DNA from: Eubacterium sp. | Lineage (GTDB): Bacteria; Bacillota; Clostridia; Peptostreptococcales; Anaerovoracaceae | DNA: 64,000 nt | NCBI GenBank assembly: GCA_034180045.1 | Contig: JAXFOY010000019.1 | Span: 6,944-70,943 of the forward strand | Direction of reading: 5' to 3' | In this document: piece by piece, positions 5,114 through 13,900 of the stretch | Position numbering within the stretch: position 1 is the first letter of the stretch | How the letters are laid out: each line of letters opens with the position of its first letter | Program-made: the position numbers and the translations under genes | Notes under the pieces: model-generated | The model's database searches: none | Told to the model about the DNA's origin: nothing | The model's input: the letters and a program-made list of their open reading frames with translations, nothing else

Positions 5114-6502
5114 TTATTCGGCAAGTCTTGGCAATGCGTCAAGGCTTGCTTTTATTTCTTTATCATCGGGAACATAATCGTTCATAGTTCCGTTATTAAA
5201 CTTTTCGTAGGCATATAGATCGAAGTAGCCTGTACCCGTAAGACCGAAAAGTATAGTTTTTTCTTCTCCGCTTTCTCTACATTTGACAGCCTCGTCCATA
5301 GCAGCCTTAATTGCATGGCTGCTCTCAGGGGCGGGTAGAATTCCTTCTACCCTGGCAAATTTCTGTGCAGCGGCGAAGACTTCTGTTTGAGTGTAACTTA
5401 CAGCTTCCATATATCCTTGATCATAAAGCTCGGAAATGGTAGGACTCATGCCGTGATAGCGAAGACCGCCGGCGTGATTTGGAGCCGGAATATATCCGCT
5501 GCCGAGAGTGTACATCTTTGCCATCGGTGATACACGACCGGTATCGCAGTAGTCGTAAGCGTACACTCCTCTGGTCAAGCTTGGGCAGGATGCCGGTTCA
5601 ACGGCGATGAAGCGGTAATCCGCTTCACCTCTAAGCTTTTCGCCCATAAAAGGTGAAATCAATCCGCCTAAGTTGCTGCCGCCTCCGGCACAACCGATTA
5701 TTAAGTCCGGCTTTATATCATATTTTTTCATAGCTGTCATGGTTTCGAGTCCTATTACACTTTGATGGAGCAAAACTTGATTCAGGACGCTGCCGAGAAC
5801 GTACTTATACCCGTCCATGCTTACGGCTGCCTCGACAGCTTCCGAAATTGCACAGCCAAGGCTTCCCGTAGTATTTGGGTGTTCAGCCAATATTTTTTTT
5901 CCGATTTCCGTTGTTTCCGACGGTGAAGGAGTAACGGAGGCACCATAGGTTCTCATTACTTCTCTGCGAAACGGTTTCTGATCGTAAGAAACCTTAACCA
6001 TATATACTTTGCAGTCAATACCGAAATATGAGCATGCCATAGAAAGAGCCGTGCCCCATTGACCCGCACCTGTTTCCGTAGTGACACCTTTTAGCCCTTC
6101 CTGCTTTGCATAATATGCTTGGGCTATAGCGGAATTAAGCTTATGGCTTCCGCTGGTGTTATTCCCCTCGAACTTATAATATATTTTCGCCGGTGTTTGT
6201 AGCTTTTCTTCCAGGCAGTAGGCACGCACCAGCGGTGCGGGACGGTACATCTTGTAAAAATCTCTGATAGCACTCGGTATTTCAATATATCGATTGGTTT
6301 CATCAAGTTCCTGTTTTATCAGTTCATCACAGAAGACCGCTTGCAAGTCCTCAAAACTTACAGGCTCTTTTGTAGCGGGGTTAAGAAGCGGTTCCGGCTT
6401 CTTTTTCATGTCAGCTCTGACATTGTAATAATGAGTCGGCATTTCGCTCTCGCTCAAATAAATTTTGTAAGGTATTGTTTTTTTGATAGCTTCGTTTGAC
6501 AT
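5114..6502 (-). CDS. trpB: TrpB2-type tryptophan synthase beta-like PLP enzyme
   Basis: GSHKLNSA (PLP Lys), TETGAGQWG, CAGGGSN, HAGGLRYHG and PAPESSHA motifs; long N-terminus typical of the TrpB2 type. Confidence 0.92.
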   Translation of the reverse strand: MSNEAIKKTIPYKIYLSESEMPTHYYNVRADMKKKPEPLLNPATKEPVSFEDLQAVFCDELIKQELDETNRYIEIPSAIRDFYKMYRPAPLVRAYCLEEKLQTPAKIYYKFEGNNTSGSHKLNSAIAQAYYAKQEGLKGVTTETGAGQWGTALSMACSYFGIDCKVYMVKVSYDQKPFRREVMRTYGASVTPSPSETTEIGKKILAEHPNTTGSLGCAISEAVEAAVSMDGYKYVLGSVLNQVLLHQSVIGLETMTAMKKYDIKPDLIIGCAGGGSNLGGLISPFMGEKLRGEADYRFIAVEPASCPSLTRGVYAYDYCDTGRVSPMAKMYTLGSGYIPAPNHAGGLRYHGMSPTISELYDQGYMEAVSYTQTEVFAAAQKFARVEGILPAPESSHAIKAAMDEAVKCRESGEEKTILFGLTGTGYFDLYAYEKFNNGTMNDYVPDDKEIKASLDALPRLAE

Positions 6503-6559: not shown

Positions 6560-6866
6560 ATAAAAAGACTCCTATCCCGGAATTTGCCGGGACAAGAGTC
6601 GAAATCTCCTGCGGTACCACCCTGCTTGGCGTAAAACGCCCACTCTTTCGCATACTGACATATGCAGATATTGTTTACGGAGTATCTTCTCCGTCGCCCC
6701 TACTTGAAATCAAGACTTTATCCTAACACCTAAAGACCGATATTTCGTTCAGTTTGCCCTCCGGAGTCCATTCGGCAAAGCGCTGTCAGTCTGCAATCAC
6801 ACCGTCTGCAAATCTCTCTTCTGAAGCTTCAAAGCTTACTACTCTCCGTCACAGGTTTGTTATAAT
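6560..6866 (-). ncRNA. T-box riboswitch leader, Trp (UGG) specifier
   Basis: Minus strand GGGTGGTACCGC at 6611-6622; AGAGA and GGTG..GA..CTGA stem I elements; GAA-TGG specifier (6768-6770); GC-rich terminator with U-tract at 6562-6600; TTGACA-17-TAGTAT promoter at 6873-6901. Confidence 0.9.
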
Positions 6867-6909: not shown

Positions 6910-8244
6910 TTAATAAAGCATGCCGTTTATGATTTGTTCACATATAAGCAAGCCGCCGCTCACACCTAAATGGGTTTTTTCGATTACATCAACATAGCCA
7001 AGTGAAGGCAAGCTGATTTCTACGCCGCAAAACTGTTTCCCTTTTGCTTTGAGCATGGCTATGGTCTGACCGTCAGCAAAGACAAGCTCGGCATCCGTGT
7101 CTAGAATATATCTTTTTTCGGCTTCAGGAAAGCCAAGTCCATTCAGCATAGATGATAATTTGCTGTCAAGAGCGGTATTTTGATGTGTGGCTGAAATATA
7201 AGCATCATCTGTTCTTTCAACTACAGAAACTGAATCGGGAATCATTCCGAAGTACTTAGAGATAAAATCAGTGTATCCAAGGCACTGCGAAATCGTGCCG
7301 TGTACTGCAAACTTTACGCCTTTTGGAAGTCCCGTAACCGCTCTTATTCTGGAAAGATGAGCAAAGCATTTGGCTCTTGCTTTTTCGCTTCGCACAATAA
7401 ATTTCTCGGCACTGCAATTAAGTTTCTCACAAATTTTTAAGATGAGAGTTTCCATGGCGGTAAAGCCGATGGGAAGCCCGTCACAAACTATATAAGGCAT
7501 ATCAAATCGCTTTGCAAGAAGTTTAGCCGCACAAGTTCCGTAGATAGGGTCAAGCACGATGTTGAGATCTGCTTGAGGTATATTTTCAATATCTTCAAGC
7601 CCTGAGCCGCTGCACAGGAAGCAATTCACATCAATTCCGCATAGCCTGAGCGCTGTTTCAAGCTCTATTTTATCCCCTGCGAAGTCCCTGTGATAAATAG
7701 ATAATCCCAGGATGTTTACGGATTTATTGGATTTATCGAACTTTGTTTTATTTTTTTCCTTTGCGAACCTGTTTATGAGCAGCTCACAAGCTTTGATATA
7801 ACCGTTCCAGATGGGGAGCGAATATCCGGGGCTGTCAAAAGTTATAATATTTTTGTCATTACAGGCAGCTTTAGAAATTCTTACAAGGTCGTCGCCTATG
7901 AGTGCGGCGCCGGGAGTATTTACAATAGCAAGAAGATCAAAGTCAATCTCATTTTTCAGAAAAACTATGGCATCATGAAGTTTGTCCTCACTTCCGTAGA
8001 CATAGTCTCTCTTGTCGAGATATGTTGAGGGTACGCGTGGCTGACCGAAATACCAAAACTCAGGGTATTCCAGCGGATCAAATTCAGGCTGCCTTATCAT
8101 CCTGTTATCAGAAGTAGCTGAATGATAGAATTTACAGCCTGTAGGTCCGTTCATAAGAACTATGCTTCGAGACACTCCTTCAAAAGCAAAAATCAGTCCC
8201 GATAAACTATCCGGAGTAATATTTGTCAAATAATTTTCTGTCAT
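6910..8244 (-). CDS. Nitrogenase component 1-like subunit (NifK/BchZ-like), single conserved N-terminal Cys
   Basis: NGPTGC(37), YVYGSEDKL and LIGDD oxidoreductase-nitrogenase motifs; start overlaps the end of the upstream gene with a GAGGAGG RBS. Confidence 0.88.
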
Positions 8245-10447
8245 TTAACCATTCTCCCTCCTCTTGTGAGTTAAACAGCCAAGCCCAGCGCTGCATTATT
8301 TTCAGACCTGAGAAAAATCCTGTGTCAGGACACATTGGAATCGTATCTGTTATACATTCTTGTACGCTTGCCGGTTCATAGTTCGACAAAATTATATCCG
8401 GCTCCAGCCGTTTTATGTCAGCCGTTCTTTCATTCCTATCGTAATTTTCAACGACATCTAAATTTTTCACTTCATCAAGAGCAGAACGGAACCCCTCGTC
8501 CTGAGAAAAATTTAATATGCCTATTCTGACAATATCCATTTCACAATCCAAAGCGGCACGCAAAACCCAATCGAGTTCATGATTGTATGTTATAATCATC
8601 AGCTTTTTGCCGCGAAGCAAAGGACGGATGTCTGCAATGGCTGATTCATAAATAATGCGGTTTTCTGAAATTATCTTTTCGGCTTCCTCTCGCACATCAA
8701 AATACTCACCCAGGGCTAAAAGCCAATGTTTAGTCGCATCAAAACCCACAGGAAACTGGTATTGAAAGAAACGAGAATTATAGTTTTTCTTGAAAAAGTC
8801 TTCAAGAATTTTTCCCGTATAATCCCGATAGGCTAAAAGATTAAGCTCGGCTGAGCAAAAATCACGAAGCGAGGCGTAGTCGGTATTGCATAGAAATCTA
8901 CAGTTGACGGAGATTCCCATGCGCTTTAAGAATTTGTTTATCCTTTGGAAATTTGCTTCCGTATTTCGTGCGACTACTTTTTCGAAGATGATATTTACAG
9001 TTTTAGGGCGAAGCTCAACATCGGGAATAATTATCTGCCGGGCAAGCGATGTATATGCCATGAGCATGCCTTGTAAATAATCCCCGGTGAGGTTTCCTTC
9101 AGCTTTGACAGTTACAATCTTTGTCCTATCGTTTGAAAGTGCGACAGCATCGTTTATATCATCGCCGATTATTCCCGAAGGACATGAACTTACAATTATC
9201 ACTGCCTTAGGCGGATTATCGGAATATATGATTGAACGAACCTTATCAAGCAATTTTTCACTTCCGCCAAATACCATATCACTTTCGTCCATATCGCTTG
9301 ATGTTACATTAGGAATAATTGATGATGGGAGGATGCTGCCTCTTTCAAAGAGTATTCTTCGTCCTGAAGAACTTATGGTCTGTACAGACAGATAGGTACA
9401 GCTTTTCGGTGAATGTGCCAAGATTACTACATCGCTGAGATTTGAACTCATTGTCATAGCTCCGTTAAAAGCGCAACCGTGAAGAGGTTCATCTCTGATA
9501 ACATTCTTTGATAAATAACCGCTGTCATAGCTTGAGCCTCCGCAGAAACTGTTGCAGGATGTTTTGCCTGTTTTGTCAAATCCGGCTTTCTTTTCATCAG
9601 AAGCGTGTTCTGAGTATGAGGTCTTCGTCTGTGCAGGCCTGCTCTGCAAAATAAGCGACTCCAATTCCTCGTCAGACAGCGGGTTTGCCGGATAAAGTAC
9701 AGGAGAGCTTATGATTCGTTTTGCAATGTCGGAAAAAATATTCGTGATTACATGTTCTTTACCTAAATTCAACTCAACTACAGTTTTGTTATTCTTTTCA
9801 GCCTCCGCAAAAATATCATGTCTCGGTATTTTGGCGAATACCGGAAGTTTAACAGCTTGTGCAAATTTGTAAACTCTTTCGTCTTCGTCTTTTACATTAC
9901 GGCTGTTATACAGTAAACCTGCGAGTCGCGAACGGTTTTCGTCGTAGTTTAGCACACCTCGAAGTATATTGTTTGCGGCATAAAGTGACATATATTCTCC
10001 CGAGGTGACGATGAAAATGGTATCGGAATATTCACGACGAATCGGTACGGCAAAACCGCCGCAGACAACATCTCCCAATACGTCGTATACGACGGCATCA
10101 TAGTTTTCTTTCGTGTGAAATTTTTCGAGCAGTTCAAAGGCTGTAATTATTCCTCTGCCTGCGCATCCGACACCGGGCTTCGGTCCGCCTGCTTCAATAC
10201 AGCCTACATTTCCAAAGCCCTCAAACAAAATATCGGATAATTTATATTCAAGAGGCGAGTGTGTTTTGATGTAGTCTAATACTGTAGGTATGTTTTCACC
10301 GCGCATGAGAAGCTTGGTGGAATCGTGCTTCGGGTCGCAACCTATCTGTAGAACTCTTTGATTTTGCAATGAAAGGGCTGCGGAAATATTTGCACTGAGC
10401 GTTGATTTGCCTATGCCTCCCTTACCATAAACAGCAATTTCTCTCAT
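8207..10447 (-). CDS. Fusion of NifH-like Fe protein and NifD/BchN/BchY-like component 1 subunit
   Basis: Residues 1-265: [24 protein letters not shown]95[12 protein letters not shown]129GGF. Residues ~320-746: HGC325, HSPKSC350, SSC422PSGIIGDD. Confidence 0.92.
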
Positions 10448-10534
10448 AAGTATTCCTTTGTAAAAACAGCCCGGGAAAAGGTAACTATCTTTAAGTCACC
10501 ATACCTCGGGCATATGGGTTATACCGTTAAGTTA

Positions 10535-10816
10535 TTATTTTTCGCTCGATTTTGCAGCGATAGCGATTATGTCACTATAGCGCTCGATAATTTTTTCATA
10601 GTTGCTGCGAACATGCGGGAACATGCAATTTGTGCAATCCTTAAATCCCGTTTCCGTATACCGGAAGTTTCCGCCGCACTTGTCACCTAGTGCATAAAGG
10701 GGGCAATAGCAGAACAGACAGTTAAAATCTTCCGGCTTATTAGTTTTGTGACAAGGGAAAAACTCGCATTCTTTGTGCTGAAAAAATTTATATTTTTCGG
10801 TTGTTATATTTAACAT
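10535..10816 (-). CDS. Cysteine-rich small-domain (zf-like) metal-binding protein
   Basis: CEFFPCH...NCLFCYCPLY...CGGN...KDCTNC..PH. Start refined to ATG 10816 by a GGAGG RBS. Confidence 0.85.
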   Translation of the reverse strand: MLNITTEKYKFFQHKECEFFPCHKTNKPEDFNCLFCYCPLYALGDKCGGNFRYTETGFKDCTNCMFPHVRSNYEKIIERYSDIIAIAAKSSEK

Positions 10817-10901
10817 GATAACCTCCATATTTCATTTCAAAAATCCTATGCCTATGATATAATTCTATTAGTATGAATCACTGCTGTCAAGGAGTCGAAA
10901 A

Positions 10902-13900
10902 ATGTCATTTACGCATCTGCATTTACATACCGAATACAGCTTGTTAGACGGCGCTGCCAGAATAGACGGCGTTGTTAAGCGTGCCAAAGAGCTGGGGATG
11001 GATTCTTTAGCGATAACAGACCACGGCACTATGTTTGGAGTTGTTGATTTTTACAAAGAATGCAAGAAGCACGGAATCAAGCCTTTGATAGGTTGCGAGA
11101 TATATATGGCGGCTCGTAAGATGACGGATAAGGATTCGGATTTGGACCGATACCAAAATCATCTGGTTTTGATTGCCGAAAATAACGACGGATACCGAAA
11201 TTTGATTAAGATAGTTTCGGAAGGATATATAAACGGCTACTATTACAAACCTCGCGTGGATAAGGATGTCCTGCGAAAACATAACGGAGGAATTATCGCT
11301 TTGTCAGCTTGCTTGGCGGGCAAGGTACAGCAGAGACTTCTGAACAAAGACTATGAGGGGGCAAGGCAGGAGGCGTTATCGCTTGACGAAATATTCGGTC
11401 ATGGTAATTTTTTCTTAGAAATGCAGGATCAGGGTCTTGAGGAAGAAGCTATGGTAAATCAACAGCTTTTAAGGCTTTCGGAGGAACTTGATATTCCGCT
11501 TGTCGCAACAAACGATGTTCACTATATAAGACAGGAGGATGCGGAGGCTCACGATGTGCTTCTCGCCATTCAAACCGCTACAAGCATAGATGACGAAAAG
11601 AGAATGCGTTTTCCCAATGATCAGTTTTACCTAAAAAGCGAAGCTGAGATGAGGACTATTTTTGCATTTGCACCGCAGGCTGTTTACAACACGGCTAAGA
11701 TTGCCGAAAGATGCAATGTGGAGTTTACTTTCGGTGAATATCACCTTCCTGAGTTTGTTCCGCCGGCAGGCAAGACCTGCTCCGAGTTCCTGCGGGAGTT
11801 AGTGGAGAGAGGACTTGAGCAGAGATATGAACATATAGATGAGTCTTTAACCGCAAGGATGAATTACGAACTGTCGGTGATAGAGTCCATGGGCTATGTG
11901 GAATATTTTTTGATAGTTTGGGATTTTATCAACTATGCACGAGAAAATAATATTGCCGTAGGACCCGGCAGAGGCTCAGCTGCCGGAAGCATTGTTTCAT
12001 ACTGCTTGAGGATTACCGATATTGACCCGATAAAATATAATCTCATCTTTGAGAGGTTTTTGAATCCCGAGCGAGTGAGCATGCCGGATATAGATATAGA
12101 CTTTTGCATCGAAAGGCGAGGCGAGGTCATAGAATATGTGAAGCGTAAATATGGCAGAGAGAATGTTTCGCAGATTATAACTTTCGGTAGACTAAAGGCG
12201 AAGGCGGCGGTAAGAGATGTAGGAAGAGCCCTCAATCTCACCTATGCGGAGGCTGACAGGATAGCTAAGGCCATCCCGTTTGAGCTTAATATGACTTTAG
12301 AAAAGGCTTTGAATGTAAGCCCCGAACTAAGCAAGATGTATGAGGAAGACGCCGGCGTAAAAAGAGTAATAGATATGGCTATGCGCATAGAAGGTATGCC
12401 GAGAAACGCTTCCACCCATGCAGCAGGAGTGGTTATTTCAAAACTGCCGCTAAACGAATATGTGCCGCTTTACATGTCGGACAAGGGTTTAGCTACGCAG
12501 TTTAACATGACGACAATAGAGGAACTGGGACTTCTGAAGATGGACTTCCTGGGGCTTCGTAACCTGACAATGATACGCAATGCCAAGGCATTGATAAAGG
12601 AAAATCACGGTATAGATATAGATTTCAGCAAGATAGGATATGAGGATTCCGCAGTTTATTCCATGATTGCAGACGGCAACACTCTCGGAGTGTTTCAACT
12701 TGAGAGCTCGGGGATGACCTCGTTTATGAAGAACCTTAAGCCGAGCTGCTTTGAAGATATAGTAGCCGGAATTTCACTGTTTAGACCGGGTCCCATGGAC
12801 TCAATTCCGAAATATATAGAGAACAAAAAAAATCCGCAAAATATTCAGTATGTAACCCCGCAAATTGCCAAGATACTCGATGTAAGCTATGGGTGCTTGG
12901 TATACCAGGAACAGGTAATGCAGATAGTTAGAGATCTTGCGGGATATAGTTACGGACGCTCCGACCTTGTGCGTCGTGCTATGAGCAAAAAAAAGGCGGA
13001 TGTGATGATGGAAGAAAAGGAGTGGTTCATAAACGGAAAAACAGCTGATGACGGAAGCATAGAGATTTCCGGTTGTATCAGAAACGGGATTCCAAAACAT
13101 GCGGCAGAGGCTATATTTGATGACATGGTCAGCTTTGCCGAATATGCCTTTAACAAATCACACGCGGCGGCATATGCGGTGCTTGCCTTTGAAACCGGTT
13201 ATCTGAAAAGGTACTATCCTGTAGAGTTTATGGCGGCTTTGATGACGAGCGTTATGAACGACTCATCCGCGATTTCCAAATACATTGCAAACTGTAGGGA
13301 CATAGGAATTGAAGTACTGCCGCCTTCGGTGCTGAAAAGTGAGCACAGCTTTTCTGCAAAGGACGGGAAAATTCGCTTCGGGCTTATGGCTGTCAAAAAC
13401 GTAGGCGAGGGTGTAGTAGATGCAATTATCAAAGCCAGGAAGGAAAAGGGCGAGCCGGGAAACATTTTTGACTTCATAAATAATCTCGACATAAGAGAAG
13501 TTAACAAAAAGGCGATGGAGAGTCTGATTAAGGCGGGAGCGCTCGACTGTCTCAACCCGAACCGTGCGGCTCATCTGGCAGTATATGAAGAAATAATTGA
13601 GTCGGCACAGCAAAACGCACGCAAGAACATAGCCGGTCAAATATCCCTTTTTCAGTTAAACAGTGAAGAGATGGGAAGCGGAGGCGTAACGCCAAAACTT
13701 CCTGATGCGGCTAATTTTGATAAAGCGGTACTTTTGAACCTGGAAAAAGAGATGACAGGTGTATATATCAGTGATCATCCGCTAAATCAATATAAAGATA
13801 TAATAGCAAGAGTTACAAGTTGTAATACGATGCAGCTTGTAGGCGGAGGCTATGAAGAAGGCGAGAATGCCGTGGAGGTAAGCGGAGAAAGCGGCATCAG

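Follow-up and report, generated by a model that had tools for sequence, protein, structure and literature searches.

A fused NifH–NifD-type protein and its NifK-type partner in a Eubacterium genome: a probable ATP-driven, single-[4Fe-4S] nitrogenase-like reductase

What reaction is carried out by a nitrogenase-like protein pair in a non-phototrophic anaerobe? The known chemistry of the nitrogenase superfamily is confined to a few cases: nitrogen fixation, the chlorophyll and F430 pathways, and the cleavage of thioethers and sulfonates. In a 64,000-nucleotide stretch of Eubacterium sp. DNA (contig JAXFOY010000019.1 of assembly GCA_034180045.1, positions 6,944 to 70,943; the window), a gene in which a NifH-type Fe protein is fused to a NifD/E-type domain (HD) is followed by a gene for a NifK/N-type partner (K). 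A preliminary description, made from the sequence, read this HD–K pair as an orphan reductase of a porphyrinoid, a corrinoid or a similar organic substrate, and its description of the host as non-phototrophic stands. The overall best explanation, with a probability of roughly 60 %, is that the pair is a self-contained two-component reductase of the nitrogen-fixation-like (NFL) type, composed of a fused NflH–NflD and an NflK, with a corrinoid-type substrate suggested by its relatives.

The fused pair

The pair and its parts are as follows:

10447..8207, minus strand: HD fusion gene, 746 aa; NifH-type Fe-protein module, tether and NifD/E-type domain
9644..10447, minus strand: NifH-type Fe-protein module, aa 1–268; P-loop, switch I CDPKHDS, switch II DVVCGGF, cluster ligands Cys95 and Cys129
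9521..9643, minus strand: tether, aa 269–309, about 41 residues of low complexity, predicted to be disordered (predicted local distance difference test score, pLDDT, below 50)
8207..9520, minus strand: NifD/E-type component-1 domain, aa 310–746 and stop; Cys325, Cys350 and Cys422 at P-cluster positions
6910..8244, minus strand: NifK/N-type partner gene, 444 aa; single invariant ligand Cys37

Pfam assigns residues 2–268 of HD to Fer4_NifH (E 4e-92) and residues 325–722 to Oxidored_nitro (E 1e-73); in the partner, Oxidored_nitro covers residues 16–442 (E 5.5e-44). In the AlphaFold2 model of the HD monomer (mean pLDDT 81.7), the fold of each domain is predicted with confidence, residues 269–309 are disordered, and the H module superposes on Fe proteins with a TM score of 0.9 and an rmsd of 1.8 Å. 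Homologues are 730–770 aa long, with a tether of variable length. The open reading frames, the Pfam domains and the invariant residues thus agree with the earlier reading of an intact Fe protein (P-loop, Cys95, Cys129) fused to a component-1 subunit. The HD and K genes overlap by 38 nt, and a GGAGG lies within the 3′ end of HD; this overlap with its internal GGAGG is conserved and suggests translational coupling. An HD and K pair is kept at every locus examined.

Cluster ligands

Across 28–32 diverse fusions the P-loop, the switch residues, Cys95, Cys129, Cys350 and Cys422 are invariant, and Cys325 is invariant or nearly so. In a HMMER alignment Cys325, Cys350 and Cys422 pair with the NifD P-cluster residues Cys α62, α88 and α154, bearing out the three cluster cysteines of the preliminary description. 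The same method aligns LNLLHCYRS of NifD with LNLL-AYRD in HD, therefore the equivalent of Cys275, which binds the iron–molybdenum cofactor (FeMo-co), is Ala, again as previously read. For His442, the corresponding C-terminal stretch of the D domain, read from the sequence, contains no His. The His in CDPKHDS, which had been called typical of nitrogenase-like proteins, is found in 21 of 23 fusions, whereas Ala occupies this position in 24 of 25 true nif loci.

In the partner, Cys37 (NGPTGC; motif GP.GC) is the only conserved Cys, present in 25 out of 25 partners from bacteria and archaea, and it falls in the column of BchB Asp36 in the component-1 alignment. The second subunit had been credited with one Cys; it has 14, although Cys37 alone is conserved at a ligand position. 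Of the six P-cluster Cys of nitrogenase (three in the alpha and three in the beta subunit), only the three in the D domain and Cys37 are represented. This set of three plus one Cys, combined with the absence of FeMo-co ligands, indicates that a simple [4Fe-4S] cluster can be bound between the subunits but that P-, L- and M-clusters cannot, in line with the pattern of chlorophyllide a oxidoreductase (COR) that had been proposed. At partner residue 73 (8026–8028), the window and [Eubacterium] sulci read RVPSTYLD, with Ser, and most partners RVPCTYLD, with Cys.

The host genome (1.67 Mb, 99.5 % complete) has HD and K as its only two PF00148 genes, and its best match to NifB, at 26.5 bits, falls far short of the cut-off of 344, so that the reported absence of nifB, nifE and nifN from the vicinity extends to the whole genome. 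Nitrogenases (Nif, Vnf and Anf) have Cys275, His442, six P-cluster Cys and NifB, NifE and NifN, and none of these sets is complete in HD–K or its host. As FeMo-co ligands, NifB and any other component-1 gene are all lacking, HD–K is very probably an ATP-driven NFL reductase with one [4Fe-4S] cluster, and not a nitrogenase.

Relationship to known systems

None of the curated NCBIfam equivalog cut-offs is reached by HD or by the partner. The H module scores 324 bits with CfbC, 316 with NifH, 215 with BchL and 199 with BchX. For the D domain the scores are 135 bits (N2ase-alpha), 111 (NifE), 108 (NifD), 75 (BchB), 66–70 (BchN), 49 (CfbD) and 35 (BchZ); the BchY model has no match there and 17 bits on the partner. 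The partner itself scores 88 bits with BchB and 34.5 with BchZ, and its best PDB match is 9d9u_C (65 bits, E 4e-17). This is the second chain of an entry whose chain A is identical in sequence to 9fmg_A of the methylthio-alkane reductase (MAR) complex, and is presumably MarK. The partner had been called BchZ-like, which holds for its ligand pattern and not for its homology.

A tree of 226 component-1 domains from the fetched loci (FastTree, LG+G) was used to place the pair relative to NifD/E, MAR, BchN, BchY, BchB and several unnamed Clostridia clades, the MAR clade being labelled through MarD of R. hungatei (L023, 306 bits to PDB 9fmg_A) and the Bch clades through NCBIfam. The D domains of all the fusions group in a single clade (n=22, the window and 21 others; support 0.98) and divide into a subclade from bacteria, Methanosarcina and Myxococcota, which contains the window, and a Methanomassiliicoccales subclade. 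The fusion clade adjoins but lies outside the NifD and NifE clade (n=48, support 1.0), is outside MAR, and is far from BchN, BchY and BchB. Likewise, the partners make up one clade of their own (n=23, support 1.0), outside Nif, MAR, BchN, BchY and BchB. The phylogenetic comparison that the preliminary description called for, made here with Nif, MAR, BchN, BchY and BchB, thus places the pair inside none of these clades. By profile and tree, the D domain is nearer to NifD and NifE than to BchN and BchY.

This proximity bears on another possible function, that of a scaffold like NifEN with NifH, on which an Fe-S or other metal cofactor is built or repaired and no substrate is reduced catalytically. 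The best scores of the D domain are with NifD- and NifE-type models, and scaffold roles have been raised for NFL pairs (Dos Santos et al., 2012), but NifB is lacking, a client enzyme is not found nearby, ligands for an L-cluster are absent, and the single site of three plus one Cys fits the electron relay on the catalytic side of COR and of dark-operative protochlorophyllide oxidoreductase (DPOR). A scaffold function is therefore very improbable.

HD–K is not a nitrogenase, nor is it a member of DPOR or COR, CfbCD, MAR or isethionate reductase (ISR), the last being set apart by description. In mechanism it is closest to COR and DPOR. Like HD–K, the two Group V enzymes COR (BchX with BchY–BchZ) and DPOR (BchL with BchN–BchB) have an ATP-driven Fe protein and one inter-subunit [4Fe-4S] cluster. 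For COR, three Cys and one Cys have been proposed as ligands of this cluster, and in DPOR the fourth ligand is Asp; HD–K shares with COR the three Cys on the D side and the one on the K side, a resemblance in mechanism and not membership. The substrate of COR and DPOR is a tetrapyrrole, and that of HD–K is probably of tetrapyrrole type. In contrast to both, HD–K has Bch profile scores far below the cut-offs, a separate clade, a fused Fe protein and a non-phototrophic host.

CfbCD (Group IV-B) resembles HD–K in its simple [4Fe-4S] cluster, in its tetrapyrrole substrate (probable for HD–K) and in CfbC, the top model for the H module (324 bits, cut-off 402). CfbC has also been reported to remain bound to CfbD, a lasting association that resembles the HD tether. 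However, CfbD is a homodimer of about 350 aa with no K partner, its model scores 49 bits against a cut-off of 268, and the host is not a methanogen. Group VI NFL proteins are described as having a NifH that is sister to BchL and BchX and a neighbourhood rich in radical SAM genes (Meheust et al., 2020). Compared by description, HD–K has an H module that scores well higher with CfbC and NifH (324 and 316 bits) than with BchL and BchX (215 and 199 bits), and no radical SAM gene nearby.

The Group IV enzymes raise the alternative that HD–K cleaves or reduces organosulfur compounds for sulfur acquisition, like MAR and ISR. MAR (MarBHDK, Group IV-C; PDB 9FMG and 9D9U) belongs to the same superfamily and supplies the best PDB match of the partner. 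In reviews, Group IV NFL genes are placed often with sulfur-metabolism genes; at one related locus (L018) a CysK-like pyridoxal phosphate (PLP) enzyme and an aminotransferase lie directly downstream of K, and a MetY-like gene is found 18 kb away in the window. MAR, however, depends on a P-cluster, an L-type cluster and MarB. HD–K can have none of them, with its one ligand Cys in K, no equivalents of Cys270 and His429, and neither NifB nor MarB. In the tree the D domain does not fall within the MAR clade, and it scores 48 bits against MarD, a true MarD scoring 306. ISR (IsrBHDK, Group IV-F) is like HD–K in that a single [4Fe-4S] cluster is predicted at the D/K interface, but its four Cys are divided in the opposite way, one in IsrD and three in IsrK, and it is unfused and accompanied by the radical SAM protein IsrB and sulfonate transporters, whereas no radical SAM gene lies beside HD–K. 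Sulfur genes occur at only one of about 25 loci, and the PLP gene beside K in the window encodes a TrpB2 and is controlled by a separate Trp T-box. An organosulfur substrate is thus improbable.

Size and distribution of the family

The preliminary description called the reductase an orphan. When 1.84 billion representatives are scanned in full with HMMER, about 90 or more 50 %-identity clusters of H–D fusions of 700–770 aa are recovered, and word-indexed searches yield more than 2,000 homologues, including over 100 intact orthologues of 757–770 aa; intact orthologues are present in hundreds of contigs. A contig scan with NifH motifs, which was swamped by ordinary NifH, recovered only about 14 fusions. 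Bacterial carriers include E. sulci, Sporobacter termitidis, Thermincola, three Aminipila species, Emergencia, Muricomes/Faecalicatena, Clostridium tetanomorphum and a Myxococcota metagenome-assembled genome (MAG); archaeal carriers include a Methanosarcina sp. and many Methanomassiliicoccales. The distribution is patchy (the fusion is carried by 2 out of 399 sampled Clostridia genomes and is absent from four further genera in the family of the host).

Nor is the architecture undescribed, as had been thought. It was mentioned in one sentence, with data not shown and with neither a clade name nor a function or gene-context analysis, as occurring in Firmicutes, Archaea and Deltaproteobacteria without FeMo-co ligands (Dos Santos et al., 2012; BMC Genomics 13:162), and a 'fused nifH/nifE' was listed by Borrel et al. 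(2014); in a 2026 Chem Rev review of NFL enzymes, the words 'fused' and 'fusion' are both absent. The window has H and D/E in one open reading frame, followed by a K/N-like gene, and no FeMo-co ligands, and its pair is an intact member of this widespread, known but unstudied family of fused NflH–NflD with NflK. This clade is large and occurs in human, pig and ruminant gut microbes, in oral microbes and in gut methanogens, but is wholly uncharacterised.

The E. sulci homologue is 74 % identical and fully syntenic. In comparison with the E. sulci orthologues synonymous sites are saturated, pN is 0.17–0.18 (0.17 for HD) and dN/dS for K is about 0.08, and both HD and K are under purifying selection. 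Pseudogenised orthologues with lack of expression had been named as a possible refutation; the orthologues are intact.

Several genomes hold more than one NFL system. The 1.9 Mb genome of a Methanomethylophilaceae gut archaeon (G405, the genome of L016; loci L154–L160) has six HD and K pairs and one unfused pair; one of its fusions (G405:C23, L154) has an in-frame TAG, and this lineage decodes pyrrolysine. In a Peptococcaceae MAG (L005, 7492–10828), a second, unfused set of D-like, K-like and NifH-like genes lies 1 kb downstream of the fused HD–K. Ruminiclostridium hungatei (G403, via L023) has 28 PF00148 genes, among them those of nif, of MAR and of several unnamed NFL pairs.

Corrinoid link in relatives

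Cobalamin riboswitches (RF00174) are located directly upstream of the HD–K operon at three related loci: L005 (54.7 bits), from the Peptococcaceae that is the closest relative with a named genome, L120 (34.6 bits) and L202 (109.9 bits). A frequency of three in about 12 bacterial loci greatly exceeds the background, which is estimated here at well under 1 % of operons, and these related operons are probably repressed through their cobalamin riboswitches. The L120 operon, led by the riboswitch, comprises an energy-coupling factor (ECF) ATPase, an SLH/alpha-toroid protein, a DUF4430 protein, HD, K and an ECF S-component. At L201 a riboswitch drives a giant DUF4430/SLH gene divergent from HD–K. 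The Sporobacter locus (L197) has a RACo_C_ter gene, for a RACo-type corrinoid activator, abutting HD upstream, and L202 adjoins methylmalonyl-CoA mutase and MeaB.

Three strong cobalamin riboswitches are found within 7 kb at L202 (5087–5256, minus; 5423–5599, plus; 11610–11791, minus), one facing the methylmalonyl-CoA mutase/MeaB operon and another a YitT-type membrane protein. Methylmalonyl-CoA mutase is a B12-dependent enzyme, and as such an unusual riboswitch target.

The 98 neighbours examined at 18 loci belong most often to the ABC_tran (14) and FecCD (8) families, with Peripla_BP_2, CobN and LarC also present. Importers of the FecCD, Peripla_BP_2 and ABC families are within 5 kb in 8 out of 12 Methanomassiliicoccales loci and at the Myxococcota locus, and CobN is near two. 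In favour of the link, the host itself produces tetrapyrroles and corrinoids, with HemC, HemD, a SirC-like protein, CbiK, CbiJ and five TP_methylases. Based on the riboswitches and the corrinoid-type uptake genes at related loci, a corrinoid or tetrapyrrole substrate is the leading hypothesis, held tentatively and at slightly less than even odds. The earlier guess of a porphyrinoid or corrinoid substrate has in this way gained independent support from relatives, and none from its own neighbourhood.

The same riboswitches could be explained if HD–K were a B12-independent substitute for a cobalamin-dependent reaction and did not act on corrinoids. Such substitutes, for example metE and nrdDG, are likewise repressed by B12 riboswitches, and riboswitch control at the three loci, taken alone, fits the replacement of B12 as well as its synthesis or import. 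It is the company of the genes that speaks against a substitute, since the L120 operon is shared with an ECF transporter and DUF4430 proteins and the archaeal loci are beside BtuFCD-type importers and CobN; moreover, no B12-dependent reaction is known that a low-potential, ATP-driven reductase could replace. Little probability is therefore assigned to a substitute.

The importers, in turn, would also suit an enzyme that removes or swaps, by reduction, the metal in imported chelates (haem, siderophores, or nickel and cobalt chelates) and leaves the corrin ring unmodified. FecCD and Peripla_BP_2 importers, the chelatase CobN and one LarC-type nickel-insertion gene are among the neighbours, and the gut archaeon with six HD–K pairs has 43 FecCD genes. 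However, the riboswitches and DUF4430 proteins in bacterial relatives indicate cobalamin in particular, no iron or nickel regulator or transporter is near the genes of the window, and such chemistry has no known precedent in the superfamily. Metal release from chelates is therefore not a likely function.

Proposed mechanism

In the favoured reading of HD–K as a reductase, two Fe-protein modules would dimerise around a [4Fe-4S] cluster held by Cys95 and Cys129 from each chain, and this dimer would receive an electron from ferredoxin or flavodoxin. With hydrolysis of MgATP, the electron would pass to the single [4Fe-4S] cluster between the D domain (Cys325, Cys350 and Cys422) and Cys37 of the partner, as in COR and DPOR. 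This cluster would then reduce an organic molecule that occupies the cavity between D and K, and N2 would not be reduced. The substrate may be a corrinoid or a related (metallo)tetrapyrrole that is needed when cobalamin is low, as suggested by the relatives only.

The fusion provides one Fe-protein module per D–K unit, whereas in all studied systems there are two H per DK. One shared H2 per (DK)2, or DK units bridged by H2, are options for assembly. Some relatives have a NifH–NifH–NifD triple fusion of about 1080 aa (P0126, and L011 2627–5884 from the Myxococcota MAG, 1085 aa), and tandem NifH–NifH proteins of about 590 aa occur, together with the H–H–D triple fusions, among P0126, P0140, P0164 and P0173. 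Both forms amount to a covalent Fe-protein 'dimer', in contrast to the single H module of the window, and bring the ratio back to 2:1 within one chain. The covalent tether and the 1:1 ratio of Fe-protein module to catalytic unit bear on the question of whether the Fe protein must dissociate after each electron.

A more specific proposal, and at present an unlikely one, is that NflHD–NflK is the first nitrogenase-like enzyme to act on corrinoids, carrying out a tethered, ATP-driven processing of scavenged or incomplete corrinoids, by reduction of the ring or the cobalt centre, at low B12. The cobalamin riboswitches before some members make this concrete and testable. If true, it would be a new reaction in the metabolism of vitamin B12, a nutrient that shapes gut communities, and would supply a step so far missing from the anaerobic pathways by which B12 is salvaged or remodelled in anaerobes of gut, mouth and sediment. 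The fused module, one per D–K unit and with H–H–D variants elsewhere, would in that case also show that the components of enzymes in this superfamily need not dissociate.

Several observations weigh against the corrinoid reductase favoured here, beginning with the 1:1 ratio described above. The neighbourhood of the window itself (dnaE, pfkA and a separately regulated TrpB2) shows no corrinoid link, and neither the gathering-threshold nor the E-value search with Rfam finds a riboswitch ahead of its HD–K. At only three of the roughly 12 bacterial loci is a riboswitch directly upstream, and the other contexts are heterogeneous, with a DAO oxidoreductase and ABC exporters in C. tetanomorphum and the CysK-like enzyme and aminotransferase of L018. 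Because the gut archaeon has 43 FecCD genes, adjacency to FecCD is only modestly enriched there, and FecCD importers also carry haem and siderophores; the six paralogues in this one genome also point to several substrates. The host already has an apparently complete anaerobic B12 pathway in which the known ring reductase, CbiJ, is not missing, and therefore no missing step is obvious. Finally, no functional work on any member of the fused family was found in the literature, and, as to expression, the contigs from one sequencing run of unstated type are fragments of low depth spread across the entire region, dnaE included, with none from two further runs.

A role for HD–K as the replacement of CbiJ in this genome was considered and rejected, since CbiJ is present. 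The sequence is present in metagenomes of pig-gut and of oral origin.

Neighbouring genes

Upstream of HD the following features were identified:

10535..10828, minus strand: PF04071 'zf-like' small Cys-rich gene, 97 aa (Pfam E 4.7e-30)
10862..10890, minus strand: sigma-70-like promoter TTGACA-17-TAGAAT, 5′ of the PF04071 gene, 11 of 12 consensus matches
10460..10511, minus strand: terminator-like hairpin and U-run between the PF04071 and HD genes (fold −26.6 kcal/mol, z −2.74)

The region assigned to the reductase in the preliminary description, 6910–10816, also covers the PF04071 gene of 93–97 aa, which its text does not mention; the product is 93 aa if translation begins at 10816, with an ATG that follows a GGAGG. 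By consensus match, 10862..10890 is the sole promoter-like site upstream of the PF04071–HD–K gene string. The intergenic gaps are 73 and 87 nt, the 87-nt spacer separating the PF04071 and HD genes. In this spacer the hairpin and U-run lie 13 nt ahead of the HD ribosome-binding site, and E. sulci (L085, 7948–7990) has a hairpin and U-run of different sequence at the same place (z −3.88). The hairpin may be an attenuator or a partial terminator and, since it is terminator-like both here and in E. sulci, HD–K may be expressed by read-through. The dnaE and pfkA genes lie divergently upstream of the gene string.

The PF04071 protein is a possible accessory, its gene also being upstream of HD–K in E. 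sulci and at locus L200 from an Oscillospiraceae MAG. A dedicated NFL accessory role is not supported as a general rule: the gene is in 78 of 399 Clostridia genomes with scattered housekeeping neighbours, and beside NFL genes at none of 29 loci.

Downstream of K is a TrpB2-type PLP gene (6502..5114, minus strand; NF009057, 693 bits) with no other trp genes alongside. Its leader has a T-box (6861..6585, minus strand; 68.7 bits, E 9e-15) with the Trp specifier GAA-UGG-A, and a terminator at 6600..6567. Membership of the HD–K operon was rejected because the gene has a promoter-like site, a Trp T-box leader and a terminator of its own, and is thus a separate unit. The arrangement of TrpB2 and T-box is kept in E. 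sulci.

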